From Elusimicrobia bacterium UBA5214 (lineage in GTDB: Bacteria > Elusimicrobiota > UBA5214): 64,000 nt of DNA. Each line of letters begins with the position of its first letter. Positions within the stretch are counted from its first letter, which is position 1. The stretch lies in assembly GCA_002412545.1 (NCBI GenBank), contig DHVG01000013.1:129315-193314 (forward strand), read 5' to 3'. The notes beneath the pieces are model-generated. The model was given only the letters and a program-made list of their open reading frames with translations. It was not told the DNA's origin and searched no databases. Made by a program: the position numbers and the translations under genes. Of the stretch, positions 2,482-64,000 are shown one piece after another.

Positions 2482-3894
2482 TTACACTTTACTTATCCCC
2501 TTTGTTTTAATCATATATATTGCACTGACTCCGCTTAATGTATATCTCAAATTTCTAATGTTTGTTAATTTTCTTACACGTTTCAGAATATACTTGGGTC
2601 TGAAATAAAATTGTGTGTAAGCAATGGTAATCAACTTTTCTAATTCCATTTTCGTCATTGTATAGGGAACAAAAACTATCTCCATTCCTTGAAATTTACT
2701 CAAATCATCACAGACTAATTTACCATAGTCATTTAACTTTTCAGCAAGGTCACCGTAAGGAGTAAGTGGAAAAAAGCGAGCATAATCAATGTCAAGTTTT
2801 TTTACAAGTTTAATCGTTTTTAAACCATCCTCAAATGTTTCTCTTGGAATTCCAAAAATAAAAGACGCTTCTACTTCCATTTTGGCTTCTTTAGTCCACT
2901 TTACAGCGTTGAAATTTTGTTCTACAGTGGTACCTTTTCTTAACATATCCAAATTTTTCTGTAACATTGATTCTAAACCATAATGTATTTTCCAACACCC
3001 AGCCGATGCCATCTCTTTTAGTAACTCTTTATCAACTAGGTTGGCTCTTGCTTGAGCAGACCAGAGAATATCCAATTTATTTTTTTTAAGTAATTTTATG
3101 ATTTCTAATAATCTCTTTCTGTTGAGGGTAAGGGTATCGTCCCAGAATGCTATGTCTTTTATTCCATATTCAACCTTTAAATATTTAATTTCTTCAATAA
3201 CCGCTTCCGGACTTCTATAGCGTATTCTTTTTCCTAATACATCGGGAATACAAAAAATACATTGGTACGGACATCCTCGGGTAGTAAAAATATTTGTAAC
3301 CGGTAATTTCTTATATTGGGAAAAAGCCGGCACATAATCCAAAATGTTTACCAGACTCCGGTCAGGAAAAGAAAGTTCATCTACATTTTCAATAACATTC
3401 CGTGAGGGATTTTCAACAATAAACGAATTATCTCGGAAGATTAATCCTTTAATCTTATTTAAATCTCCTCCGTTTTCAATATAATTAACTAATTCTAAAA
3501 GTGTGTACTCACCTTCACCGTATACTAAAGCATCCAATTGAGCAGATTCCTGAAGACATTTCTTTTTAGAGATGGTAGCGTGAACACCACCAATAACAAT
3601 AAATGTTTCTGGGAATTTGTCTTTCAACATAGCGATCATTTCTTTTACTTTTGGCCAAGTAAAGGTCATCACCGAAATACCAATAATCTTTGGTTTTTCT
3701 TCAAAAATTATTCTTAACATTGAAGGAAAGTCAGTCCTACTTCCATCAAGTATGATTACTTGATGACTTGCTCTTTTTAATATTGTGCCCAAAGAGAGCA
3801 ATCCAAGTGGAGGAAGAGTCCCACCCACCTTTGCTATCGCTTTTCCATATCTTTCTTCCAAGGATATTGGCGGTAAAACTAATGCTATTTTCAT
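2482..3894 (-). CDS. B12-binding domain radical SAM protein
   Basis: N-terminal Rossmann-like B12-binding region followed by CxxxCxxC cluster motif (RGCPYQCIFC); 470 aa. Confidence 0.8.
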   Translation of the reverse strand: MKIALVLPPISLEERYGKAIAKVGGTLPPLGLLSLGTILKRASHQVIILDGSRTDFPSMLRIIFEEKPKIIGISVMTFTWPKVKEMIAMLKDKFPETFIVIGGVHATISKKKCLQESAQLDALVYGEGEYTLLELVNYIENGGDLNKIKGLIFRDNSFIVENPSRNVIENVDELSFPDRSLVNILDYVPAFSQYKKLPVTNIFTTRGCPYQCIFCIPDVLGKRIRYRSPEAVIEEIKYLKVEYGIKDIAFWDDTLTLNRKRLLEIIKLLKKNKLDILWSAQARANLVDKELLKEMASAGCWKIHYGLESMLQKNLDMLRKGTTVEQNFNAVKWTKEAKMEVEASFIFGIPRETFEDGLKTIKLVKKLDIDYARFFPLTPYGDLAEKLNDYGKLVCDDLSKFQGMEIVFVPYTMTKMELEKLITIAYTQFYFRPKYILKRVRKLTNIRNLRYTLSGVSAIYMIKTKGISKV

Positions 3895-4207
3895 TTTGTA
3901 CTTTATAATTGTATTTAGCAGTTCTTAACTTTTTTCCCAATTACTAACATTTCTCCACAAGAACTCCAGAACATTATCCAGCTTATTCGTCGTGGCATTA
4001 CCCTAAACAAGCAATTCACAAATGGTGTAAAAAAATAATTTTAACGTCTCTTTGTATTAAGAACTGCATGTACGTAAAATAAATTAAAGAATTTTCTTAC
4101 TGTTCCTTTATAAATCATTCAAAAACCTGTCTTTTCCAAAAGTTTATCTATGGTAAGTGCTGAAAAATAGTAATAACGCTTTGATATAAAAATATACCTA
4201 TTTTTCT

Positions 4208-4572: not shown

Positions 4573-5975
4573 CTTCCAGAAAAATATTTTATGCCTACTC
4601 TAATAAAGTATAAAGTCCGTTTTAAAGGAAATATCATTTTTATATAGTAAAAGATTATTTTAGGTCTTAAATAGAATTGAATCATAATCATTTGTTGAAT
4701 CCTTTTCAATTTCTTTATGGATATTGAATCCGGAGAATATACGGGAATAGCAAGGGAACCTTTTGATAGATGAAGAGAGGAATATTCTATTTTTTTTTCA
4801 CTCTTAAGCTGTTCTGTTATTTCAGAACCGGGTAGGGGGCAAAACAAAGAAAAAGTTGCTCCGACGAGATCCAGTTCTAGTGCAAGTTGTTTGGTTTTCA
4901 TAATGTCCTCAATAGTTTCATCAGGATATCCTAAAATAAAAAAAGCATGAATAGGTAAACTGCATCGCCTTACCAACGATACTTTTTCTCTTATCAAATT
5001 TAGGTTTAATCCTTTCTTCATATTGTTAAGAATCTTTTGAGAGCCGGATTCAATACCAAGAACAATCGAGTGACATCCTGATTTCTTCATCCAAGGCAAT
5101 ATTTCTTCGGTTAATGAATTTAACCTAATTCCGTTGTGCATTGTCCACTTTATTTTTATATTATTCTCAATTAGAGATTTACAAAATTCTATTACAAATG
5201 AAGAGTTGTGTATAAAATTGTCATCGGTAATTAAAATTTCTTCTACTTTAAATTTGTAATATAATAATTTAATTTCTGAGATTACACTCTCAAGGGAACG
5301 CGAACGCATTTTTCTCCCTGATATTTTATAACCGACACAGAAAGTACATCTGTATGGACATCCTCTGGTAACCACTATGGGTGCTGATTTCATTGTTCTT
5401 GCCTGAAAAGTCGGCATAAATTTATGATAAAGTGACAAATCCAAAACTGTTCCCCAAGGAGGATGCCCAAAAGAGTCAACATTCTCATAAAATATTGGTT
5501 CATTGCATATAATTCCTTTTTCTGTCCTATAGATTAAACCTGGTATTTTGTTTGCCCATCCAGTGATATCTTTCTTTGATGTAAGGCAATCTATGAACTT
5601 CGGTACACTAATTTCTCCTTCCCCTTGGAAAGCATAATCAATCCATTTTAATTGGTTTAATACTTCATAGGGAGCTGATGAAGGATGGGGTCCTCCTGCA
5701 AGAGTTATGGTATTCGGCCTGTTTCTTTTTATAATTTCTGATATTTTATCTACTACGGAAACATCGGTAGAAAACATCGTAATTCCTAATACATCGGGAT
5801 CGACTTCGTTAATTCGCTTTATTACCGATTGCATATCCAATCTTTCCGCATGAGCATCAAGAATTACAACCTCATACCCTCTTTTCAATAAAGCAGTAGC
5901 AAGATAACCTAATCCTAAAGGAGGCATTACCCAAAAAGAACTTTTTTTTATGGGGACCAATAGAAAAATACGCAT
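4569..5975 (-). CDS. B12-binding domain radical SAM protein (paralog of 2482..3894)
   Basis: CxxxCxxC motif RGCPYRCTFC and N-terminal B12-binding-like domain; same architecture as the neighbouring gene. Confidence 0.8.
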   Translation of the reverse strand: MRIFLLVPIKKSSFWVMPPLGLGYLATALLKRGYEVVILDAHAERLDMQSVIKRINEVDPDVLGITMFSTDVSVVDKISEIIKRNRPNTITLAGGPHPSSAPYEVLNQLKWIDYAFQGEGEISVPKFIDCLTSKKDITGWANKIPGLIYRTEKGIICNEPIFYENVDSFGHPPWGTVLDLSLYHKFMPTFQARTMKSAPIVVTRGCPYRCTFCVGYKISGRKMRSRSLESVISEIKLLYYKFKVEEILITDDNFIHNSSFVIEFCKSLIENNIKIKWTMHNGIRLNSLTEEILPWMKKSGCHSIVLGIESGSQKILNNMKKGLNLNLIREKVSLVRRCSLPIHAFFILGYPDETIEDIMKTKQLALELDLVGATFSLFCPLPGSEITEQLKSEKKIEYSSLHLSKGSLAIPVYSPDSISIKKLKRIQQMIMIQFYLRPKIIFYYIKMIFPLKRTLYFIRVGIKYFSGR

Positions 5976-56115: not shown

Positions 56116-57282
56116 CTAATCCACTCTCTTTAATTTCGTCCCCGGATAATAATACTTGAGAATTTCCTTGTAATCATGTCCTTTCAAACCCATACCCCGT
56201 GCACCCCACTGGCATAAACCTACCCCGTGTCCCCATCCTTTACCTTTAAACTGGTAAGCATCACTATAAATTTTCATTTCCACAAAAGTACTGCGTTGAT
56301 TTTCCGGATTAAAAAATATCCGGAATTGGTTAGCCAGAATGATGTGTTTCTTTCCCTTTCCATCAATAATTCTCAACTTGCTTACTCTGCCGCCATTTCC
56401 CCTTTTGTCAATTTCCAATTTTTCAACTTCGTCTATCGGGTATCCTTTCTTTTTTAAAACCGCAGCAATTCTTCTTTTACTTAAACTATGTTCCCAATAA
56501 TATCGTGGGTCATCTTCACAGAATTTACATTTTACACCTTCCAAATATTCCGGGTCATTAGCACTACCCCAGACATTGCTTGGTTTATCCGTACAACCTC
56601 CACAGGTGGAATGAAAAAAAGCATTAATCGGTTCACCGTCATAAATAAGAATTTCTCCCCTTGTTGCATCCACTGCTTGATTCGTCAGCACACTTTCACC
56701 CGATAAACCAGCATAAACCTGACAATGAACACGATTACAGAGATTAAAACCGTCACCGGTATGTTTAGTCAAATTCTTCAAAGCATAAGTGCGGGAAATG
56801 ACCGCTTGTGCTTTCAAGGTTTCCTCGGGCCAATTTGGTGAAATTTCCGGCTTCATTACCCCGTAAAGATATTGTTCTAACTCAACCCGATTAACTACAG
56901 TAAACCTATTTTTTGATTTTTTTATTAAAATCAAAGAACCACGATAACCACGTCGATTAACTTTGAGATAGCCGGAAGAAATAATTTCTACCCGGGAAGT
57001 AAAATTTTTCTTTCCAATTTTTAATCCATCTTCAACAGCAGTAACTGAGTAGTCCCCGGCAGAAAAATTCACCGTTTTATCTTTACTTATAATCTTTAAT
57101 TCTTTTTCCCCACTGATACTTACCCGATTTACCCCGGACAAAATACCTATCTCTACCATAACTTCGGGATTAACCGCTAAAGTTTCCCTAAAAGGAAATA
57201 AAATTACCAAATAAAAAATCAGAGATCCCGCTAAAGCGGTGAAAAGAAAATACCAACTTCTCGGTTTAATTTTATGATTCAT
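56116..57282 (-). CDS. SpoIID/LytB-domain protein (amidase enhancer / lytic transglycosylase-like)
   Basis: SpoIID motifs AQAVISRTYA, HCQVY, AFFHSTCGG. Track start is TTG at 57294; ATG at 57282..57280 (MNHKIKPR...) preferred. Confidence 0.75.
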   Translation of the reverse strand: MNHKIKPRSWYFLFTALAGSLIFYLVILFPFRETLAVNPEVMVEIGILSGVNRVSISGEKELKIISKDKTVNFSAGDYSVTAVEDGLKIGKKNFTSRVEIISSGYLKVNRRGYRGSLILIKKSKNRFTVVNRVELEQYLYGVMKPEISPNWPEETLKAQAVISRTYALKNLTKHTGDGFNLCNRVHCQVYAGLSGESVLTNQAVDATRGEILIYDGEPINAFFHSTCGGCTDKPSNVWGSANDPEYLEGVKCKFCEDDPRYYWEHSLSKRRIAAVLKKKGYPIDEVEKLEIDKRGNGGRVSKLRIIDGKGKKHIILANQFRIFFNPENQRSTFVEMKIYSDAYQFKGKGWGHGVGLCQWGARGMGLKGHDYKEILKYYYPGTKLKRVD

Positions 57283-57311
57283 CTTTATCCACAAATCTTC
57301 CCGAATGATAA

Positions 57312-57386
57312 CACGAATTTACACTAATTAAGTCCAAGGAAATTATTCGTGAACATTCGTGTGACTTAAATTCGTGCTCATTCGTG
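57312..57386. promoter_or_regulatory. phased direct repeats ATTCGTG (x4, one inverted copy) upstream of the SpoIID/LytB gene
   Basis: ATTCGTG at 57345, 57355, 57370, 57380 (10-15-10 bp spacing) and inverted CACGAAT at 57312..57318; 60-100 bp upstream of the ATG at 57282. Confidence 0.5.
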
Positions 57387-57391
57387 CATAT

Positions 57392-57625
57392 TTATTTTCG
57401 TCCAAAAAGTTTAAAAAGTAGAGTTAGAATTATACTGATAATAATACAAGTAGTCAACGGAAAATAGAAACGAAAATTTTCTTTCTCAATCCGGATATCC
57501 CCGGGTAATTTTCCCAACTTGTTCAAAAAAGGTATATTAGATATCTTTTCCCCGAAAAGCATAAATATACCAATCAAAACAAATAATAAACCAAGAAAAA
57601 TAAAAATTCTACCCATGTAATTCAT
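57392..57625 (-). CDS. DUF2905-family small membrane protein
   Basis: KLPGDIRIEKENFRFYFPLTTCIIISIILTLL matches the DUF2905 LPGDI...FYFPL pattern; 77 aa. Confidence 0.65.
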   Translation of the reverse strand: MNYMGRIFIFLGLLFVLIGIFMLFGEKISNIPFLNKLGKLPGDIRIEKENFRFYFPLTTCIIISIILTLLFKLFGRK

Positions 57626-57635
57626 TTTCTAATAC

Positions 57636-57731
57636 GATTCAAACAGATAAAATCTCCGATTCAAACGAGATAACAACCAAAATTTAGTCAGGTCTTCCGT
57701 CTGTTCGAATCCGTTTGAATCTGTATGAATC
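57636..57731. repeat. iteron-like array: two direct CGATTCAAAC copies (22-bp period) and three tandem inverted GTWYGAATC copies (10-bp period)
   Basis: cgattcaaac at 57635 and 57657; gttcgaatcc / gtttgaatct / gtatgaatcg at 57703..57731; followed by hairpin gtcgcc-tcttc-ggcgac (57772..57788). Lies between queH stop and DUF2905 start. Confidence 0.8.
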
Positions 57732-57817
57732 GTCTTTTGGATTATCTGTCTGCATCTCGCCTTTTTTATCTGTCGCCTCTTCGGCGACCTGCCGACGAGG
57801 CATGGCGGCAATCTGCG

Positions 57818-58396
57818 TTATTTCTTCTCTGCGTAATCAGCGCTTCTTTTCTGCGTAATCTGCGTTATACTATAGAGACAGCCACAATATTTTTGTGAAT
57901 ATAAACCTAATTCTTTGGCTTTCTTTTTCTCTGGATAATAACTATTCCGCAAATCCTGATAACAAAATTTTACTCCGTTTTTTTCTTCTAATTCTTTACC
58001 AATTCTTTTAATCTCTTCGTGCTTTTGCTGCGGACTGGAAAGAAGCGAACTGCTGAAATAAGTAAAACCATTTCCCCGGGCATATTTTGCCGTCTTCTCT
58101 AAACGCAAACGGTAACAAAAAAGATGTCGTTTTTCCGCATCATCGGCGAAATCTTTCACCGCCTTCAGCCATGCTTCCTGACTATATCCGTCATCATAAA
58201 TCACCGGGAATCCGATTTTTTCACTCAACTGCTTCACTGCTTCCCGCCGTTTCCGGTATTCTTCTTCGGGATGGACATTTGGATTAAACCAGAATACCGT
58301 AACCAATCCCGCCCTTTCAATGAAAGAACGGGATAATTCTTCATAAATTCCTAATCCGCAAATCGCACAACAAAAATGCAAGAGTAATTTTTCCAT
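57818..58396 (-). CDS. queH: epoxyqueuosine reductase QueH (DUF208)
   Basis: LLLHFCCAICG, FWFNPNVHPEEEY, YSQKYCGCLYS Cys motifs; 192 aa. Last ~40 nt hold a ~20-nt direct duplication (GATTACGCAGARAAGAA). Confidence 0.85.
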   Translation of the reverse strand: MEKLLLHFCCAICGLGIYEELSRSFIERAGLVTVFWFNPNVHPEEEYRKRREAVKQLSEKIGFPVIYDDGYSQEAWLKAVKDFADDAEKRHLFCYRLRLEKTAKYARGNGFTYFSSSLLSSPQQKHEEIKRIGKELEEKNGVKFCYQDLRNSYYPEKKKAKELGLYSQKYCGCLYSITQITQKRSADYAEKK

Positions 58397-58405
58397 CAGT
58401 ATATT

Positions 58406-58735
58406 TTACCGCTTTATTCTTGCCGCGTAGCAAAAAACATAAAAATATTTTCGCCAGAATTGGTCAGAGGAAGAGAATTGATTATCAGAATAAAAATAAT
58501 CAACTAATGTTTCGCGTAATCGTGTTAATTCTTTTAAGTGGGATTTGTTTTTTGGATTAGAAATTGTTAAATCCAAAAGTTCCAAGGCGCGTTCAACGGC
58601 TTTGCTGCTGTAATTATTATTCTTGTTTCTCCAGTTGATTGCCCGCTCAACCTCACTCCCGATGTTTGCCATCTGCTCAAAAAAAGTTAACTCAAACCAC
58701 CTGCCGGACGATAGTTGTTTATGCTGATAGTTCAT
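58406..58735 (-). CDS. hypothetical protein (downstream member of overlapping two-gene module)
   Basis: 109 aa, predicted helical; ATGA overlap with the upstream 113-aa ORF; no motif I can name. Confidence 0.5.
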   Translation of the reverse strand: MNYQHKQLSSGRWFELTFFEQMANIGSEVERAINWRNKNNNYSSKAVERALELLDLTISNPKNKSHLKELTRLRETLVDYFYSDNQFSSSDQFWRKYFYVFCYAARIKR

Positions 58736-59073
58736 TGTTTAATTAAGTTGTTTACGATTTCAATTATTTTTTCCCTGATTTCGGGATTATCAATTCCACG
58801 ACTACGGTTCCCTTGCGATGGTCGCAGATTTATCAATGCGTCAAATTCAATCCAACTTTCATCCTTTATTTCAGGATATAGATTAATCCCCCAGAGAGTT
58901 TGTTGATTTGAACCGTTTTCAATTAATAGAGCTTCCTCATCCGAGTGAAGTTCACCGCCAACAACCAAGATTCCTTTTTCCACATCAACCACTGCTTTAA
59001 CCAGGTCGCCAAACATTTCTTCTGCCATTTTCTTTAGCTCAGCAATAGAAATTTTATCCTTAATAATTTTCAT
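58732..59073 (-). CDS. hypothetical protein (upstream member of overlapping two-gene module)
   Basis: 113 aa, contains GILVVGGELHSDEEALLIENG; translationally coupled to 58406..58735; unknown family. Confidence 0.5.
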   Translation of the reverse strand: MKIIKDKISIAELKKMAEEMFGDLVKAVVDVEKGILVVGGELHSDEEALLIENGSNQQTLWGINLYPEIKDESWIEFDALINLRPSQGNRSRGIDNPEIREKIIEIVNNLIKQ

Positions 59074-59114
59074 AAATGTAATTTTTTTCTTTTGGCTTTC
59101 TTTTTGATTTTCTA

Positions 59115-59145
59115 AACTTCTTCTCCTACCCGCAATGAGCAGATA
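59115..59145. promoter_or_regulatory. conserved ~31-bp motif, copy 1, upstream of the two-gene module
   Basis: cttcttctcctacccgcaatgagcagataac; 28/31 identical to the copy at 60424..60454; minus-strand core GTTATCTGCTCATTGCGG lies ~45 nt upstream of the ATG at 59073. Confidence 0.6.
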
Positions 59146-59333
59146 ACATGTTCAGGGAAAAAATAAAACTGCCCCCTTTTTCGTCAAATGCTTAAGTCCC
59201 CATTCTTAGTTTTGCTTATAAATCCCTGCGGTTAGATTTATTTTAATAAATCTGCAGGGATGCAAAACTATGGGGGTCAAGGTTTTACACCTATTTCTAT
59301 TCCTATTTCACCCATTTATTTGAGCCCCGTAAA

Positions 59334-60404
59334 CTAAGTACCATTTGTCAATAATTTCTCCGGTAGTTTAATTCTTTCTAATCGTTGTTGGATAAGTTTT
59401 TTATCCGGCAATTTAGTTTGATAAACTGAAATTTTTATCGGTTTGTGTGTCTTACTTAAGGTCAAACGGACAATACTGTCTCTCTTAGAGCGACATAGAA
59501 TTAAACCGACCGATGGACTTTCCTCTGGTAATTTTATTTGTTCGTCAAGAGCAGCAAGATAAAACTGCATCTTACCCACATATTCCGTTCTAAATTCGCC
59601 TATTTTAAGTTCAACCGGGATAAGACATTTCAGTTCCCGATGAAAAAAGAGCAGGTCAATTCTAAATTCTTCACCATCTATCACCAGAGGATATTCTTCT
59701 CCAACAAAAGATAAGTTTTTACCAAATTCCAGAAAGAAATCTCTGAGATTGTCAAGAATTGCCTTGCGTAGTTCTTTTTCCGAGAAAGTTTTTGTTAAGT
59801 CTAAGAATTCTAAAACATATTCATCTTTTAAATGACGATGAATATCATCAAGCGGTATAGCAAGTTTCCCCTGAGTGGAACGAAGGGTCTCCTTTTCTAT
59901 CTCCATCAGTTTATCTGGTTTTTTAGAGAGAGCAAATCTTTCAAAATAAGCAGAATCAATCTGACGCTGTAATTCCCTCTTACTCCATCGTTCTTTTAAG
60001 CACATTTTGATATAAAACTCTTTTTCTTCAATGGTTCTTGTATGGTCTAAGATAATCACATTGTTTGTCCAGCTAATTTCTCCAGCCAGTGGCTGGAGAA
60101 TTGTTTTGTCTCTGTAAGTTAAATAAAATTTCTTCATATACCATAAATTCTGGACTGAAAATCCGCTCATTTCCGGATACTTCATCCTCAAATCCTGTGA
60201 TAGTTTCTCAACCACCCCATCACCCCATTCGCTCTTCTCTTGAAGACTTACAATACGCTCACCAATAAACCAGTAAAGGTCAATCAGCAGTTTATTTACA
60301 GTAGTGATTGCCTTATGTTTATTTTCTTCAACCTTTTTTATGATAGCTGAAAGTGATTCTCCGTAATCTTGAGTTTGTTTTTTTACAATATTAATTTTTC
60401 CCAT
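59334..60404 (-). CDS. YhcG-family (DUF1016) PD-(D/E)xK nuclease-domain protein
   Basis: N-terminal DUF1016 pattern (LIDLYWFIGERIV...WGDGVVEKLSQDL...GFSVQNLWYMKKFY...WSKRELQRQI) and C-terminal PD-(D/E)xK core (IDLLFFHRELKCLIPVELKIGEF); 356 aa. Confidence 0.8.
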   Translation of the reverse strand: MGKINIVKKQTQDYGESLSAIIKKVEENKHKAITTVNKLLIDLYWFIGERIVSLQEKSEWGDGVVEKLSQDLRMKYPEMSGFSVQNLWYMKKFYLTYRDKTILQPLAGEISWTNNVIILDHTRTIEEKEFYIKMCLKERWSKRELQRQIDSAYFERFALSKKPDKLMEIEKETLRSTQGKLAIPLDDIHRHLKDEYVLEFLDLTKTFSEKELRKAILDNLRDFFLEFGKNLSFVGEEYPLVIDGEEFRIDLLFFHRELKCLIPVELKIGEFRTEYVGKMQFYLAALDEQIKLPEESPSVGLILCRSKRDSIVRLTLSKTHKPIKISVYQTKLPDKKLIQQRLERIKLPEKLLTNGT

Positions 60405-60423
60405 AGGTACATTTTAAATTCTA

Positions 60424-60454
60424 TTTCTTCCCCTATCCGCAATGAGCAGATAAC
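60424..60454. promoter_or_regulatory. conserved ~31-bp motif, copy 2, immediately upstream of the YhcG-family gene
   Basis: tttcttcccctatccgcaatgagcagataac; ends ~20 nt from the YhcG ATG; TAGAAT-like hexamer follows the core on the minus strand. Confidence 0.6.
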
Positions 60455-60537
60455 GATCTCTGGATAAAAGAAGTTGCTGGAGGCAATTTGGGAAAATCTT
60501 TGATTTCCCTTTTGTCCGCTGTTAGGCGATGTGAAAA

Positions 60538-61110
60538 TTATAGTGTTGGCAAAATAACAAGAGCAACAAAAAGAAACAATGAAATTCCATAGATAAAAAG
60601 AACATATTTAGGCATAAGTAAAAATAATCCTCGTTCTTTTCTTTGTTCTGGCGAAAGTTTCAGGCTATATATACAGAAAAAAATAACAGGAATTATTCCA
60701 AATATCGCAATTGCAAAAATTATCTCCAAGACAAATAATATCCATATAGACCATAGCGGACGTTTAACTACCATTTCCTTTATGCCGAATAATGCTGAAT
60801 AGATTCCATAACCTATTGTGCACCAAAATAACCATTTACCAACAAAGTAATAATCTCTCTTTTTGATTGCTTGCTTTAACTTCTTCTCTCCAAATATATC
60901 TCTATCGTTTTTTTGCAATTCTTTTATTTGCATTTTATAGTTTTTAGCCTGCTGCAAAATCTCATTTGAAGGTTGACTTAACCTTCTTTCATCTAAAATT
61001 GATTTAGCAATTTCAATCGCTTCTTCAATATAATCTGAACTGTCAAAATATACCATAACTAAGAGTTCATTATCGCTAAGTTTTGAATACTGATCTTTTA
61101 GTTCATTCAT
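60538..61110 (-). CDS. hypothetical membrane protein (soluble N-terminal domain plus 3-4 TM helices)
   Basis: 190 aa; Lys/Glu-rich N-terminal ~90 aa, then hydrophobic helices; no known motif. Confidence 0.5.
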   Translation of the reverse strand: MNELKDQYSKLSDNELLVMVYFDSSDYIEEAIEIAKSILDERRLSQPSNEILQQAKNYKMQIKELQKNDRDIFGEKKLKQAIKKRDYYFVGKWLFWCTIGYGIYSALFGIKEMVVKRPLWSIWILFVLEIIFAIAIFGIIPVIFFCIYSLKLSPEQRKERGLFLLMPKYVLFIYGISLFLFVALVILPTL

Positions 61111-61183
61111 TATTTGACCTCTTTATATTTTTATGTAGCTTAACTTTTTTGTTTCCAAGCAGGTTTGGATACTTTTCCGGTTT

Positions 61184-62209
61184 TTAGAATAGTTCTTTGT
61201 TTTTTGGTGGAAGTAGCCCTAAATGACGATAGGCGTTTTCGGTAGCGATACGTCCACGGGCAGTGCGAGAAAGGAAACCGACTTGAATCAGATAAGGTTC
61301 ATAGACATCGGTGAGCGTATCCACTTCTTCGGAAACGGCGACTGCCAAAGTTTCTATCCCGACCGGACCACCGGAAAATTTTTCCATTATCGTCAATAAG
61401 ATTTTTCTATCCATTGAATCCAACCCGGCAGTATCTACTTCTAACGAACTTAACGAATCTTCGGCAATCTTACGGGTAATTATTCCTTGTCCTTTGACTT
61501 CGGCAAAATCACGGATTCTCCGTAAAAGACGGTTGGCTACCCGCGGGGTTGCTCGGGAACGGGAAGCAATAATTTCTGCACCGTCATCTTCAATTTTTAT
61601 CTCTAATAGTTTCGCTGAACGGAGAACAATCTTTTTCAATTCATCAAAGGTATAAAAGTTTAAATGTCCGATAATCCCGAATCTTTCTCTTAAGGGACTG
61701 GTGAGCAGACCGGCACGGGTAGTCGCTCCGACTATGGTAAAACGCGGTAAAGGGAGACGCATATTCCGTGCACTTGCTCCTTCACCAATAATGATGTCTA
61801 ATTTGAACTCTTCCATTGCCGGATATAATGCTTCTTCAACTAAACGATTCAGCCGATGAATTTCGTCAATAAAGAAGACATCACCGTCAGTTAAATTGGA
61901 AAGAATTGCCGCAAGGTCACCGACCCGTTCTAAAGCCGGTCCGGAGGTGGGACGAATATTTACATTTAATTCGTGGGCAATAATGTAGGCAAGAGTGGTT
62001 TTGCCTAATCCGGGAGGACTGTAAAATAAACAATGGTCTAAAGGTTCTTTTCTTTGTTTTGCCGCCTGGATAAAGATACGCAGGTTATCCTTTAATTTAT
62101 CCTGCCCGACAAATTCGTCTAATGTCTTCGGACGCAAGGTAATATCAATTTTTTCTTCTTCCGGAGTAATCTCGGTAGTAAGTATACCCCGCACCTTTTC
62201 ATTCTGCAT
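61184..62209 (-). CDS. ruvB: Holliday junction branch-migration ATPase RuvB
   Basis: AAA+ Walker [12 protein letters not shown], Walker B DEIHRL, sensor regions; 341 aa. Confidence 0.95.
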
Positions 62210-62334
62210 TTTGTTTATTTTCCTTCTTTAGTAGTCTTGACGCTAAGCAAACCCCACACTAATAAAGATGCGGGGTAAGCGGTCTTTCAAAGGTGTTCAC
62301 CTTTAAGGGTTAAGTGATTCCACAAAAATGGCTA

Positions 62335-62444
62335 GGCAATTTGTTGAGGGGTTCCTCTTTGAACGACATCAGAGTTTTTGACGACCTTCGATTTTGGTCA
62401 AAAAATCATAAAGTGAAAAGAGGGTTCCCGAGACAAAAATTGCC
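62335..62444. other. structured element in the unusual 327-bp ruvA-ruvB spacer
   Basis: Closing helix ggcaattt (62335..62342) with aaattgcc (62437..62444); internal hairpin tttttgac...gtcaaaaa (62375..62404); direct repeat gagggGTTCC; separate hairpins aaaggt-gttc-accttt (~62290..62305) and gccgagc-aa-gctcggc (62484..62499). No ORF of 60 aa or more. Confidence 0.45.
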
Positions 62445-62536
62445 TACTCAAAACTCTGCTTTAACAAATTCTATTATTTTTTAGCCGAGCAAGCTCGGCA
62501 ACTACAATTGCGATACAACCTCTTAGATAAAGTTAC

Positions 62537-63145
62537 TTAGCGGTTAAATTTTTTTAATGCCTGAGTAACTAAATCTTCAGCCGATAATTTACTTTTCTGC
62601 TGGCTACTTGCGGCACTAAGCACTTCTTCTACTGCTTCCCGTGCCTGGAATTCCCGGTAACCGAGTGCAACTAAACCAGCAATCGCATCCAGTATTTCTT
62701 TTTCTTCGGTGGCTATTTCTCCCTTTTCTTCAGAAATTATCCATTCTTTAATTTTTTCTTTTAATTCCAGAATAATCTTTTCGGCAGTTTTCTTACCAAT
62801 ACCAGGAATAGTGGTGAGATAAGAGATTTCTTTACTGGAGACGGTTTTTTTAAATCTTACCGGCGGGCAATGGGAGACAACCGAAAGGGCAATCTTCGGA
62901 CCGACATCCGGAACATCTAAAAGATAACCGAAGAGTTGTCTTTCTTCCCGGGTAAAAAAACCGTAAATCTGTTGAATATTTTCCCGCACATGAAAGTAAG
63001 TATAAAGTTTCAATGGTTGATTTATTTTCGGTAATTTTTCGTAAGTAGTCAGCGGGACAAAAATCTGGTAACCAATACCGTTCACGGCTAAAGTAACTTC
63101 TTCTCTACTTTTATCGGCTAAAGTGCCTTCTAAAAAATTATACAT
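62537..63145 (-). CDS. ruvA: Holliday junction DNA helicase RuvA
   Basis: RuvA domain I (GIGYQIFVP), helix-hairpin-helix domain II (LLDVPDVGPKIALSVVS, IPGIGKKTAEKI), C-terminal RuvB-binding domain; 202 aa. Confidence 0.9.
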   Translation of the reverse strand: MYNFLEGTLADKSREEVTLAVNGIGYQIFVPLTTYEKLPKINQPLKLYTYFHVRENIQQIYGFFTREERQLFGYLLDVPDVGPKIALSVVSHCPPVRFKKTVSSKEISYLTTIPGIGKKTAEKIILELKEKIKEWIISEEKGEIATEEKEILDAIAGLVALGYREFQAREAVEEVLSAASSQQKSKLSAEDLVTQALKKFNR

Positions 63146-63152
63146 TTGTTAA

Positions 63153-63677
63153 TCACAAATCTAATTTATTCGCTTGAACTTGTTTATTATATTTTGCGTT
63201 ATAAAGGTGACAGAGGGCTACGGCTAAAGCATCACTGACATCATCCGGTCCCTGAATCTGATTACCGCTAACCGGCAAATTAAGACAGAGTTTTACCATT
63301 TTTAGCACTTGCGATTTTACTGCTCTCCCCTGCCCGGTAAGCGCTTGTTTAACTTGTAAAGGGGTATATTCAAATACCGGAATCCCTGCCTCGGCAGCGG
63401 CAAGCATGATAATTCCTTGACTCTGGCCAACTACAATTGCGGTTTTTACATTCTGAGCAAAAAAAAGTTTCTCCATCACTAAACAGGAAGGTTTATCCTG
63501 CTGAATAATTTTTTTTAATTCAGAATAAATCTTTTTTAATCTCTCCGCTGTAGAACTCTTTGTTTCTGTTTCAATACAACCGTAATTTTGAACTCTTAGC
63601 TCCTTGCTCTTTGCTATTTGCTCTATTGTTCCCCACCCACATCGGGCAATACCCGGGTCTATTCCAAGAATTGTCAT
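63153..63677 (-). CDS. ruvC: crossover junction endodeoxyribonuclease RuvC
   Basis: RNase H-like N-terminus ILGIDPGIARCGWG with catalytic Asp. Track start is TTG at 63686; ATG at 63677..63675 (MTILGIDPG) preferred. Confidence 0.9.
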   Translation of the reverse strand: MTILGIDPGIARCGWGTIEQIAKSKELRVQNYGCIETETKSSTAERLKKIYSELKKIIQQDKPSCLVMEKLFFAQNVKTAIVVGQSQGIIMLAAAEAGIPVFEYTPLQVKQALTGQGRAVKSQVLKMVKLCLNLPVSGNQIQGPDDVSDALAVALCHLYNAKYNKQVQANKLDL

Positions 63678-63685
63678 TTTGTTCA

Positions 63686-63775
63686 ACTTATAACTTATGA
63701 CCTATAACTTATAACTATTAGTTGTTGTATGTTATCGGTTATTGGTCATCGGTTATCAGTCATCAGTTATTAGTC
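63686..63775. repeat. two adjacent heptamer arrays filling the ruvC-yebC spacer
   Basis: AACTTAT-type x5 (63686..63720) then ATCGGTT-type x6 (63734..63775: atcggtt attggtc atcggtt atcagtc atcagtt attagtc), ending at the yebC stop codon; TGATAC periodicity continues into the yebC 3' end (63779..63792). Confidence 0.85.
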
Positions 63776-64000
63776 CTACGATACTGATACTACCTTCTCC
63801 ATCACTGCCTTCGGAATATCAAAATTAGCATAAACATTCTTTACATCTTCGTGTTCTTCCAAAGCATTCATTAAGGCAAGCATCGTTTCCGCTTTTTTCT
63901 CATCCAATTTTATGTAGGTCTGCGGGAAAAAAGTTATTTCGGCGCTGCTTAAAGGAATTTTCTTCTCTTCCAGTATCTTTTTTACTTTTTCATATTCTTC
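63776..64000 (-). CDS. yebC: YebC/PmpR-family transcriptional regulator, C-terminal 74 codons (5' end beyond window)
   Basis: Manual minus-strand translation from the window edge: ...MLALMNALEEHEDVKNVYANFDIPKAVMEKVVSVS then TAG at 63778..63776; matches the conserved YebC C-terminal box; yebC-ruvC-ruvA-ruvB is a classic arrangement. Absent from ORF track (edge-truncated). Confidence 0.8.
   Translation of the reverse strand, partial: EEYEKVKKILEEKKIPLSSAEITFFPQTYIKLDEKKAETMLALMNALEEHEDVKNVYANFDIPKAVMEKVVSVS

Follow-up and report, generated by a model that had tools for sequence, protein, structure and literature searches.

Why does a block of about 31 nucleotides stand twice, in the same orientation, around a nuclease gene in an Elusimicrobia genome? 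The window, by which we mean the whole 64,000-nucleotide stretch of contig DHVG01000013.1 analysed here, comes from Elusimicrobia bacterium UBA5214. The first-pass annotation had noticed the two copies on either side of a gene of the YhcG family. Both are present as quoted on the plus strand, and the second lies exactly where it had been placed, but the first begins two nucleotides further on (59117..59147, not 59115..59145) and the measured spacing is 1307 nt, not 1309. Read on the minus strand, which is the strand of the genes, the block is GTTATCTGCTCATTGCGG[G/A]TAGG[A/G]GAAGAA. The elements concerned are:

60424..60454, minus strand: motif copy 2, reading GTTATCTGCTCATTGCGGATAGGGGAAGAAA; proposed GTTATCT R' core site of the hairpin attC(a), followed by the YhcG unit's conserved 5' leader.
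59334..60404, minus strand: open reading frame (ORF) of 356 aa for a YhcG/DUF1016 PD-(D/E)XK nuclease (Pfam DUF1016_N and YhcG_C).
59117..59147, minus strand: motif copy 1, reading GTTATCTGCTCATTGCGGGTAGGAGAAGAAG; heads the unit of DUF5674 and a 109-aa ORF.
58406..59073, minus strand: DUF5674 gene (58732-59073) and the overlapping 109-aa ORF (58406-58735), behind motif copy 1.

The two 31-nt blocks differ at three positions, and an 18-nt core (CCGCAATGAGCAGATAAC on the plus strand) is identical in both. Beyond the blocks the likeness fades, with nothing convincing past ~31-45 nt. The window holds no third copy of the core, even with 3 mismatches allowed, and none of 100 dinucleotide-preserving shuffles contained two matches.

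A shared promoter or operator of this genome, controlling both YhcG and DUF5674, was one of two explanations offered at the outset. The copies do lie upstream of minus-strand starts at the distances described (20-50 nt), namely 20 nt from the YhcG ATG (60404) and 44 nt from the DUF5674 ATG (59073), and each is followed by a TAGAAW hexamer, TAGAAT or TAGAAA. However, the hexamers lie at unequal offsets from TTGCGG (13 and 15 nt), are missing from the family consensus and are not conserved in ~55 related loci; the hexamer is therefore not part of the element. The ATG distances also differ, the motif has no strong dyad symmetry or palindromic operator, and no sigma-70-like match lies in it. Promoter-like sites in the region number 7, against 9.5 expected from shuffles, and none overlaps either copy. 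With two copies only in 64 kb, and with the same 18-mer heading unrelated genes at integron sites in more than 50 genomes of other phyla, we regard this explanation as largely refuted and very improbable. A terminator reading was discarded as well, the terminator-like hits being on the wrong strand.

The distribution of the core in other genomes points to a different kind of element. The exact 18-mer occurs in 75 other genomes, against ~17 expected by chance (an estimate, 596 Gb x 2 strands / 4^18). Most carriers are metagenome-assembled genomes (MAGs) of Nitrospirota, Thermodesulfovibrionia and Desulfobacterota, and two are labelled archaeal. In ~55 of the 75 the first bases of the 18-mer are the GTT of an integron recombination site; some of these sites are attC hairpins that separate co-oriented cassettes, the others are attI-like and adjoin a recombinase gene. 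From there the motif runs on into the ribosome-binding site and start of an unrelated gene. Same-strand arrays of the motif occur as well. These 18 junction bases are invariant across many phyla. In 56 instances the core is followed by a purine-rich, Shine-Dalgarno-like stretch (consensus continuation GCAGGgAAAGgAgg), with an ORF starting 16-25 nt past the core in about half; most family members carry the ribosome-binding site within ..GGGAAAGGAGG and an ATG 6-9 nt later. Occurrence at many unrelated positions had been named beforehand as the mark of a generic repeat. The motif is indeed found at many positions in other genomes, but they all share one specific context, and we thus take it to be a feature of a defined mobile element. 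The 18-mer is absent from viral contigs, plasmids gave no match to the junction, and the exact motif was found neither in a text search of 8 million papers nor in the supplements of the archaeal-integron paper (PMC9668308).

We propose that the motif copies are integron cassette junctions, and that the window probably contains a short, integrase-less, CALIN-like cassette cluster between ruvB and queH. The proposal follows from the junction motif in combination with a well-supported attC site, attC(a), and a recurring cassette for a 190-aa protein, which lie immediately upstream of motif copy 2:

60448..60527, minus strand: attC(a) hairpin, with R'' GCCTAAC, L'' GCGGACAAAAG, a tip with CCAAAT, L' CTTCTTTTATCC, a spacer and R' GTTATCT.
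60538..61110, minus strand: ORF of a 190-aa membrane protein, cargo of the first cassette.
61138..61144, minus strand: GTTAAGC, a canonical GTTRRRY core site and 5' boundary of the 190-aa cassette, 39 nt past the ruvB stop codon.

The attC assignment is based on a covariance model (R1) with a structure derived from 18 aligned sites. In this structure 10 of the 11 stem pairs covary, with changes on both sides; 88% of the alignment cells are paired, compared with 36-51% in slid controls, and none of 500 shuffles reached the observed covariation. TAAC/GTTA is invariant in all 18 sites. Matches to R1 reveal 4-5 co-oriented attC sites per locus in six related loci (L011, L056, L062, L065, L084 and L087). 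The motif stands directly after 19 of 59 attC sites, and GTTATCT is the commonest R' box among them (23/59). A complementary conserved 5' arm (GCCCGCA..AGATAAC) accompanies 12 of the 23 AGATAAC-type sites under a strict definition and ~17 under a loose one, and full extended hairpins occur in loci L013 and L065. Canonical attC sites have an unpaired central spacer of ~5 nt per side and an extrahelical G in the bottom strand; the spacer here is asymmetric, a single 5' nucleotide facing five 3' nucleotides, and CTT before the L' stem is unpaired.

attC(a) matches R1 with 77.3 bits (E = 2.4e-12). The match ends at 60448, so that it takes in the GTTATCT of motif copy 2, which directly follows a strong attC hairpin of the upstream 190-aa gene. 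Both terminal boxes, R'' and R', are present, the L''/L' stem is conserved as structure and not as sequence, and the bottom-strand DNA folds with z = -2.3. The ATCT of the R' box deviates from the RRRY consensus, as expected because those bases come from the neighbouring cassette. Near-identical attC sites follow homologous genes in loci L084, L088, L047 and L065, and sites of this type lie 3' of genes that form co-oriented arrays, where the homology between cassettes stops at G|TT.

Homologues of the 190-aa protein (62-71% identity) are encoded in unrelated contexts in L047 and L084-L089, and in L047, L084, L087 and L088 the gene is again followed by an attC of the attC(a) type. The homologous cassettes part from the window sequence right after GTTAT. 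At the other end, the alignment of their 5' ends begins with the TTA of the R' box before them: the sequence after GTTAAGC in the window, CTACATAAAAATA, is homologous to the 5' ends of the 190-aa cassettes in L084 and L087, which directly follow the attC R' boxes GTTATAC and GTTACGC. Judged by these sequence boundaries, the 190-aa gene is a cassette. Two other placements of the recombination point were rejected. The outer helix (CCGCAAC / ATTGCGG) is not the true crossover, as the homologous cassettes diverge earlier, between GTTAT and ATT, and a dif/Xer-like double-stranded core site inside the motif has arms that, on inspection of the sequence, are not convincingly inverted.

In the proposed mechanism, the first 7 nt of the motif (GTTATCT) would be the R' core site, at which integron-type tyrosine recombinases exchange strands (G|TT), and the next ~24 nt would belong to the downstream cassette as its conserved 5' leader. 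In the native attC type this leader would serve as the 3' strand of an extended R helix: in the circular form of the cassette, the leader GTTATCTG-ctca-TTGCGGGCA would pair with the conserved 5' arm TGCCCGCAA-cgg-CAGATAAC at the cassette's other end. The leader may be recognised by the recombinase, act as a translation initiation region, or both. The genes are ordered ruvB, 190-aa cassette, YhcG unit, DUF5674 unit and queH, inside the conserved ruvCAB-que-tgt-secDF neighbourhood of the genome, with three GTT boundaries (61144, 60454 and 59147). The cluster would accordingly be read as GTTAAGC; the 190-aa gene with attC(a); the motif with YhcG and a degenerate site, attC(b); and the motif with DUF5674 and the 109-aa ORF. 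YhcG probably entered in cassette form, through site-specific recombination at G|TT. Its excision would join attC(a) to the DUF5674 leader, with ...CCAGAGATCG|TTATCTGCTCATTGCGGGTAGGAG as the scar, and would create the circular cassette junction ...CCCTGAACATG|TTATCTGCTCATTGCGGATAGGGG.

The YhcG unit spans the interval between two consecutive junctions (60453 to 59147, 1307 nt). Two structures at its 3' end come into question as its attC site:

59141..59237, minus strand: putative degenerate attC(b), ATCTAAC-cg-CAGGGA ... TCCCTG-aacat-GTTATCT, at the 3' end of the YhcG unit.
59198..59275, no strand assigned: imperfect palindrome of 78 nt downstream of YhcG, partly overlapping attC(b).

attC(b) has a fitting geometry and is the best local alignment of model R1, yet it scores 10.1 bits and folds no better than shuffles (z = +1.0), so that it is unproven as a solid attC; we consider it at best a tentative, decayed one. 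The palindrome folds well as DNA (z = -5.1; 0 of 200 shuffles fold as well), but it has no AAC/GTT boxes and no relatives were found among the fetched loci, and it was rejected as the attC of the YhcG unit.

The second explanation offered at the outset, direct repeats left by insertion of a YhcG cassette, stands in so far as the YhcG unit does lie between the two repeats. What does not stand is an origin of the repeats as a transposon target-site duplication: they are 31 nt long with 3 mismatches, and the same sequence pre-exists at integron junctions in ~55 other genomes. In a broader form of this explanation, a self-mobile YhcG module would have split the junction of attC(a), motif and DUF5674 and duplicated ~31 nt, as a long target-site duplication or a copy of the leader. 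In keeping with such an event, attC(b) lacks statistical support, and YhcG homologues elsewhere are single genes in tight intergenic gaps, devoid of attC sites; at one of these loci (L093) the YhcG insertion is flanked by a 12-nt direct repeat. The window copies are also mutual nearest neighbours in the variable 14-nt tail, with 3 differences compared with at least 4 for all other instances, but ~6% of random instance pairs are equally alike there. The event would not, moreover, predict a block whose first bases coincide with the GTT crossover of an integron site, and 31 nt is far above known lengths of target-site duplications. While 3 of 31 positions differ between the copies, the 18 nt that are invariant across phyla stayed identical, as expected under independent constraint, and the sequence that immediately precedes copy 1, TTTTTTCCCTG-AACAT-GTTATCT, looks like the L' arm of an attC with a 5-nt spacer. 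We therefore consider insertion with duplication unlikely, and retain the reading as cassette junctions. The nearest-neighbour relation could nevertheless mean that the copies are related by local duplication or conversion instead of heading two cassettes independently.

Neither gene behind the motif accounts for it. The YhcG protein has homologues of 75-87% identity in Nitrospirota, Bacteroidetes, Desantisbacteria and Altiarchaeales, and none of 85 loci encoding YhcG homologues contains the motif or an attC, which excludes the motif as a YhcG feature. The DUF5674 loci L175-L178 likewise exclude it as a DUF5674 feature: the same two-gene module of DUF5674 and the 109-aa ORF lies there between unrelated housekeeping genes, with motif or attC at none of the four. 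These genes thus normally move by other routes. Identities of 70-87% across phyla for the YhcG and DUF5674 homologues are consistent with mobile cargo. A site emptied of YhcG was not found in close strains, as all contigs encoding identical flank proteins carry the gene.

A CALIN comprises two or more attC sites, with no integron integrase nearby. The window provides attC(a) with 77 bits and the degenerate attC(b) with 10 bits (fold z = +1.0), and no attC was found after the 109-aa gene, which ends 9 nt before the start of queH. No integrase was detected in the 64 kb by tblastn with the recombinase from locus L013, a query that picks up the true IntI genes of L019 and L055 as well (33% identity). 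The YhcG unit without a convincing attC, the DUF5674 unit without any and the lack of an integrase in 64 kb count against the cassette reading. The same holds for the asymmetric attC spacer, for the YhcG and DUF5674 homologue loci devoid of motif and attC, for the distance of the motif's purine-rich tail from the start codons in the window and for the failure to find an empty site in close strains. ARAGORN found no tRNA or tmRNA, so that a tRNA-derived att site was rejected. We found no report of integron cassettes from the phylum Elusimicrobia in the literature searched.

The conserved block could also serve mainly at the RNA level, as a portable 5'-UTR or translation-initiation module for promoterless cassette genes, possibly with a stabilising hairpin, the link to recombination being secondary. 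AAAGGAGG closes the consensus, and in about half of the loci, as noted above, an ORF starts 16-25 nt past the core. L019 has a perfect TATAAT 5 nt upstream of GTTATCT, and the motif would then stand at the very 5' end of the first cassette's mRNA. On inspection, a CUGCUC/GGGCAG hairpin can form just 5' of the Shine-Dalgarno sequence. However, this pairing is not kept in motif variants and was rejected as the cause of conservation, and Rfam 15 yielded no gathering-level hits in the window and chance-level hits only in the region and four related loci. A Shine-Dalgarno sequence needs no 18 invariant bases upstream of it, and the motif begins exactly at the R' box, and a complementary DNA arm is conserved at the opposite side of the attC. 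In the window, the purine-rich tail ends 20 and 44 nt from the start codons, unlike at most loci, and this is too far for a role as ribosome-binding site there. A predominantly RNA-level function is for these reasons quite improbable, and we return to the junction reading.

The recombinases beside the motif in related loci are of two kinds. True IntI genes adjoin the motif in L019 and L055, with TIGR02249 scores of 368 and 373 bits (cutoff 265), full-length alignment to IntI4 (2A3V) and the IntI-specific additional domain; intI is divergent in L019, the classical layout, and co-oriented in L055. By association with these two genes, attC(a) may be a substrate of an integron integrase. Many motif arrays are headed by a recombinase of the L013/L052 type, which passes NF040815 (XerA/integron integrase) but reaches 227 and 199 bits with TIGR02249, each in two stretches and under the cutoff. 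Its alignment to IntI4 (2A3V) skips IntI4 residues ~206-240, and the IntI-specific domain, which lies around patch III (Messier & Roy 2001, as cited in PMC9668308), is lacking. In this respect it resembles Xer/XerA enzymes and the I2-helix-deleted IntI (Escudero et al. 2016, PMC4792948). Unlike Xer at dif, it heads co-oriented attC-type arrays beside an attI-like region with direct repeats, and is not located at a chromosome dimer-resolution site.

The sites resemble canonical integron attC sites (2016, PMC4889954) in the following respects: they are hairpins 3' of promoterless genes whose arrays are co-oriented; they have AAC/GTT boxes (inverse core and core), an inner stem that covaries, a spacer left unpaired and a variable tip; and cassette homology breaks at G|TT. 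The small, diverse cargo, including toxin-antitoxin pairs, and the presence of a true IntI in some loci and of integrase-less clusters in others are also shared with canonical integrons (2016, PMC4889954). Ghaly et al. 2022 (PMC9668308) reported attC types common to bacterial phyla and MAGs of archaea, and the types found here likewise span both. In contrast to canonical sites, where only GTTRRRY is conserved, ~24 nt outside R' and ~13 nt outside R'' are conserved, with 18 nt invariant across phyla, R' is GTTATCT and the spacer is 1 x 5 nt, compared with roughly 5 x 5-6. The window also departs from canonical arrays in having one solid attC, a degenerate second and a third unit without one. 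The element is of a known kind; the invariant extension of its R' box is unusually long.

Long conserved stretches in both arms are also found in the Vibrio cholerae repeats (VCRs) and other species-specific attC families of sedentary chromosomal integrons, which are highly homogeneous within arrays; VCR-type sites have lineage-specific conserved arms, placed internal to the R boxes. The arms described here are external to the R boxes, on the side of the crossover that belongs to the neighbouring cassette, and are common to distant phyla. A further parallel is the attI1 site of class 1 integrons, which carries translation-assisting signals (ORF-11 / Shine-Dalgarno in attI; reviewed in PMC8876359). 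In both cases sequence beside the recombination point gives translation signals to cassette genes that have none of their own, but attI1 is a fixed platform that serves the first cassette only, whereas the leader travels with individual cassettes and occurs at internal junctions.

We speculate that the motif might be the specific recognition element of a distinct, previously undescribed integron-like branch, with a short IntI/Xer-like recombinase, three-helix attC sites and a leader-borne ribosome-binding site; this is a tentative possibility. The recombinase, without the IntI-specific domain, would point the same way as its array, next to an attI-like site that carries TATCCGAAC direct repeats. 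The extended conserved R helix (TGCCCGCAA.CGG.CAGATAAC / GTTATCTG.CTCA.TTGCGGGCA) would replace the extrahelical-base recognition of classical IntI, and the leader would supply every cassette with a ready-made ribosome-binding site. Cassettes of such a branch would pass among Nitrospirota, Desulfobacterota, Elusimicrobia, CPR bacteria and archaea.

An odd repeat in the window would thus be explained as the footprint of integron-type gene capture, and the mobile-cassette cluster in a conserved Elusimicrobia neighbourhood would consist of a membrane-protein gene, the gene of a PD-(D/E)XK nuclease and a putative module of two genes. In canonical attC sites only ~7 nt are conserved at the crossover, whereas here the 18 invariant nucleotides and their mirrored arm point to an additional layer of site recognition, or to a built-in expression signal, of which integron models and attC-finding tools make no use. 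The co-occurring recombinase without the IntI-specific domain bears on the evolution of integron integrases from Xer-like ancestors, and the exact 18-mer is a practical probe that retrieves cassette arrays from uncultivated lineages.

The two copies of the 31-nt motif that bracket the YhcG gene form a real, non-random repeat. Both sequences quoted in the first-pass annotation are present, copy 2 at 60424..60454 as given there and copy 1 at 59117..59147, 2 nt from the position claimed; the spacing had also been misjudged, and is 1307 nt from start to start. The copies are alike over ~31 nt with 3 differences, the likeness fading on both sides, and their 18-nt core (plus strand CCGCAATGAGCAGATAAC) is identical; read on the minus strand, the motif is GTTATCTGCTCATTGCGG[G/A]TAGG[A/G]GAAGAA[G/A]. 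No further copy of the core was found in the 64-kb window with up to 3 mismatches permitted, and none of 100 dinucleotide-preserving shuffles contained two matches. The surrounding genes all lie on the minus strand, in the order ruvC-ruvA-ruvB, 190-aa membrane protein, copy 2, YhcG/DUF1016 nuclease, 186 nt, copy 1, DUF5674 with an overlapping 109-aa ORF, queH, DUF2905 and spoIID:

61144-60538, minus strand: cassette of the 190-aa membrane protein
60527-60448, minus strand: attC(a), hairpin site after the 190-aa gene
60453 to 59147, minus strand: YhcG unit of 1307 nt, motif head plus YhcG ORF
59198-59275: 78-nt imperfect palindrome downstream of YhcG, bulges on one arm, DNA fold z = -5.1
59073-58406, minus strand: DUF5674 with its overlapping ~110-aa partner

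In a scan of one genome per species, the exact 18-mer occurred in 75 loci, against a chance expectation of ~17 (our own estimate: 596 Gb x 2 strands / 4^18). The core is thus found at many positions, as had been anticipated for a generic repeat, but 56 instances share a purine-rich, Shine-Dalgarno-like continuation (consensus GCAGGgAAAGgAgg), and ~20 of the 75 loci look like chance matches within coding regions (Streptomyces, Faecalibacterium, others). About half of these 56 instances are followed by an ORF (50 aa or longer) that begins 16-25 nt past the core. In the window the purine-rich tails lie 20 and 44 nt from the start codons, in both cases too distant for a role as ribosome-binding site. 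Each window copy has the other as its nearest neighbour (3 differences in the variable 14-nt tail), a closeness reached in that tail by ~6% of random pairs of instances. Among the genes after the motif, which are mutually unrelated, many encode lipoproteins and secreted proteins; others are toxin-antitoxin genes or unknowns. We reject the proposal that the repeats are a shared promoter or operator.

The hosts of the motif are mostly MAGs of Nitrospirota, Thermodesulfovibrionia, Desulfobacterota and Nitrospinota, with Dadabacteria, one Patescibacteria MAG and two archaeal-labelled MAGs in addition; the window genome itself is labelled Elusimicrobia by NCBI. The element has no Rfam family, and its sequence was not found in the literature searched. 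Its absence from viral contigs and plasmid records is consistent with sedentary chromosomal arrays of uncultivated lineages. The window's own species is missing among the genomes with the exact 18-mer, yet two NCBI MAGs of the species hold both copies; possibly the representative assembly lacks the region, which could lead to an empty site, or the species lies outside the collection. The near-identical strains all have the same arrangement, and no empty site was found among them.

Within single loci fetched for comparison (L013, L065), a motif profile detects several same-strand copies 0.5-3 kb apart. Between them lie cassette-like genes: some unknowns, together with ParE toxin pairs, an HHH protein and an IS200-type Y1 transposase. 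The IS200-like transposase (223 aa; L065 991-1662) belongs to a Nitrospirae array, where it is carried by a cassette with the motif at its head. The segments between genes fold as a long imperfect hairpin with the motif at its end. The 5' part consists of the R'' box (nnnTAAC), 1 nt, an 11-bp L stem and a variable tip, often with CCAAAT; the 3' part comprises the L' arm (CTTCTTTT..), a 5-nt unpaired spacer and the R' box (GTTAnnn). In an alignment of 18 sequences the TAAC/GTTA pairs are invariant, 10 of the 11 L-stem pairs show compensatory two-sided changes, and 88% of the cells are paired, against 36-51% with the partner slid; none of 500 shuffles reached the observed covariation. The covariance model of this hairpin identified 59 sites in 62 loci, with co-oriented arrays of 4-5 sites each in L011, L056, L062, L065, L084 and L087. 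In anatomy, these sites and arrays correspond to integron attC sites and arrays of cassettes. The motif start coincides exactly with the R' box, most commonly GTTATCT (23 of 59 sites), and the full motif directly follows 19 of the 59 sites. The motif consists of the R' core and an adjoining conserved leader, located at integron attC and attI junctions.

The only strong match to the model in the 64 kb is attC(a) (77.3 bits, E ~2e-12), a covariation-supported hairpin of this motif-linked family. Its start lies 10 nt past the 190-aa gene's stop codon; the GTTATCT of copy 2 forms its final 7 nt. Homologues of the 190-aa protein (62-71% identity) occur in unrelated contexts: beside a UDG gene in L084-L086, in a cassette array in L087, in L088/L089, and in a Patescibacteria MAG in L047. 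An attC of the same type follows the gene in L047 (cassette 1404-2068), L084 (5001-5702), L087 (3204-3914) and L088 (546-1208). The likeness to the window extends through ...AAC-GTTAT and ends there, the sequence continuing with CTGCTCATTGCGG in the window, ATGAAATTGC in L084, AACCATTTCC in L088 and ACGCCATTACC in L087. In L047, too, the motif comes after the cassette, and the gene downstream is a different one. The 5' end in the window is a canonical GTTAAGC, 39 nt past the ruvB stop codon, behind which the sequence is homologous to the cassette 5' end in L084 and L087. Given the flanking GTT boundaries, attC(a) and the homologue breakpoints, the 190-aa gene with attC(a) is a true cassette, bounded in homology at GTTAT, and copy 2 is its junction to the next unit. 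The G+C content is 0.31 for the cassette, 0.43 for ruvB and 0.35 for the whole window. The membrane protein has no Pfam family; its gene is a widespread integron cassette, present together with its attC in a Patescibacteria MAG and several metagenome contigs, with differing neighbours. The cluster breaks an otherwise conserved housekeeping stretch (56116-64000), yebC-ruvC-ruvA-ruvB ... queH-DUF2905-spoIID-queA-tgt-yajC-secD.

The R'' box reads AGATAAC in 23 of 60 attC sites, preceded by ..TGCCCGCAACGGC in 12 of the 23 strictly and in ~17 loosely, and TGCCCGCAA-CGG-CAGATAAC matches almost exactly the reverse complement of the motif's GTTATCTG-CTCA-TTGCGGGCA. With such outer arms, full sites (for example L013 6740-6850 and L065 4925-5030) fold as three helices: an outer helix of 7-8 bp; past a small internal loop, an R helix of 8-10 bp whose inner end holds the G|TT crossover; and, behind an asymmetric spacer, the L stem. 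Because strands are exchanged at G|TT, the 3' strand of the extended R helix moves with the following cassette, at its 5' end, so that the motif heads cassettes even behind an attC of another type without the complementary arm. Such hybrid junctions are present in the window, L017, L047, L065b and L070. Many other junctions carry a looser extension, [R'] G-m-m-ATTGC and GCAAC-nnn-[R'']. Those without the full motif (L011, L016, L017, L056, L057, L064, L083, L084, L087) have a weakly conserved pattern beyond the canonical boxes, GCAAC-nnn(n) ahead of R'' and G-[ac]-[ac]-ATTGC behind R', with the second AAC/ATT element set off from the first by roughly one turn of the helix. This hints that the attC family in general has an outer helix.

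No integrase was found in the 64-kb window. True integron integrases accompany the motif in L019 (368 bits) and L055 (373 bits; TIGR02249, cutoff 265 bits), the latter aligning over its full length to Vibrio IntI4 (PDB 2A3V), including the IntI-specific segment. In L019, which has the classical integron layout, the first cassette with its motif head lies ~480 bp from the integrase gene and diverges from it. A perfect TATAAT stands 5 nt before GTTATCT in its intI-proximal attI region (L019 1847-1880, minus strand), which would set the predicted transcription start of the first cassette at the motif or just within it. A different, shorter IntI-like recombinase is encoded in about ten other loci, whole or as fragments at locus edges:

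L013 4451-5392: recombinase gene
L052 869-1765: recombinase gene of the same type
L011, L026, L035, L036, L041, L065, L080, L083: fragments

This gene is co-oriented with the attC cassette array, stands at its head and ends 100-125 nt ahead of the motif. The gap resembles an attI site, with direct repeats of TATCCGAAC near -69 and -29. The best PDB match of the enzyme is IntI4, with IntI4 residues ~206-240 skipped; the TIGR02249 scores, 227 and 199 bits, stay below the cutoff, and NF040815 (XerA/integron-integrase) is passed. Since the IntI4 segment is skipped and TIGR02249 fails, these enzymes, a clade of IntI-like tyrosine recombinases, lack the IntI-defining feature.

Copy 1 and the YhcG unit are the weak part of the cassette case. 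A 97-nt segment at the 3' end of the unit has attC geometry (ATCTAAC-cg-CAGGGA...TCCCTG-aacat-GTTATCT; putative degenerate site attC(b)), and its 3' arm resembles the L' arm and 5-nt spacer of the family. It is the best local alignment to the covariance model, yet scores only 10 bits, and folds no better than shuffled sequence (z = +1.0, both strands). The 78-nt palindrome has no AAC/GTT boxes, no terminator-typical T-tract and no relatives among the fetched loci. No attC lies behind the DUF5674 unit, 9 nt after which queH starts.

YhcG homologues with 75-87% identity occur in MAGs labelled Nitrospirota, Bacteroidetes, Desantisbacteria and Altiarchaeales, and none of 85 fetched homologue loci has the motif or an attC. 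The closest homologues lie mostly between mod and res of type III restriction-modification systems, others being wedged in operons. Relatives at 77-82% include those in L095-L103 (metagenome contigs), L092, L090, L093/L094 and P0101 (Altiarchaeales); copies at 75-80% extend across bacterial phyla and archaeal MAGs. Single-gene insertions between mod and res, with gaps of sometimes 2 nt, and in T2SS and RND efflux operons suggest a selfish or restriction-modification-accessory mobile nuclease gene. In L093 a 12-nt direct repeat, AGCAAAAACGAA, stands right before the YhcG start codon (~3989-4000) and before that of the next gene (~5064-5075), an arrangement like that in the window, but A-rich and possibly due to chance. 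The two-gene DUF5674 module, whose ~110-aa partner has no Pfam family and which may be a toxin-antitoxin-like or defence pair, is likewise found without the motif between unrelated housekeeping genes in other phyla (L175-L178, ~3001-3677); copies 70-82% identical occur in WOR-3, Patescibacteria, Omnitrophica, Actinobacteria and others, with different flanking genes each time. Homologues in unrelated contexts without the motif indicate that both cargoes are mobile in their own right. Their placement behind motif heads could reflect integration as cassettes followed by decay of attC(b), the replacement of cargo that earlier cassettes carried, or local duplication.

In integrons, folded attC strands recombine at G|TT, cassettes pass through circular intermediates, and integrase-less attC clusters are termed CALINs (PMC4889954, PMC5027507, PMC9668308). 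By analogy, the YhcG unit would have been integrated, or at least delimited, by recombination at two GTT points, in a cluster either built in trans or inherited from a lost platform, and the leader would pair with the conserved 5' arm in circular cassettes. The earlier suggestion of direct repeats left by insertion was right in outline, but the insertion did not duplicate the sequence; both copies are conserved junction sequences of integrons. We regard it as highly probable that the motif is an integron junction element, whereas the balance tips only slightly towards YhcG itself having been integrated as a cassette at these points.

In function the element resembles integron cassettes in a CALIN-like cluster, and for the most part it can be classed as such, so that its kind is known. 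It departs from the standard integron description in a ~24-nt sequence-conserved extension outside R' (18 nt invariant across phyla) with its mirror outside R'', in an asymmetric 1 x 5 spacer, and in its association with a co-oriented recombinase without the IntI-specific domain. None of these was found in the part of the literature covered. We speculate that the sequence is invariant because a recombinase, especially of the type without the IntI domain, recognises it specifically, because it serves as a portable translation-initiation region, or for both reasons. The element is ordinary in kind; its peculiarity lies in the invariant extended R arm and the short recombinase.
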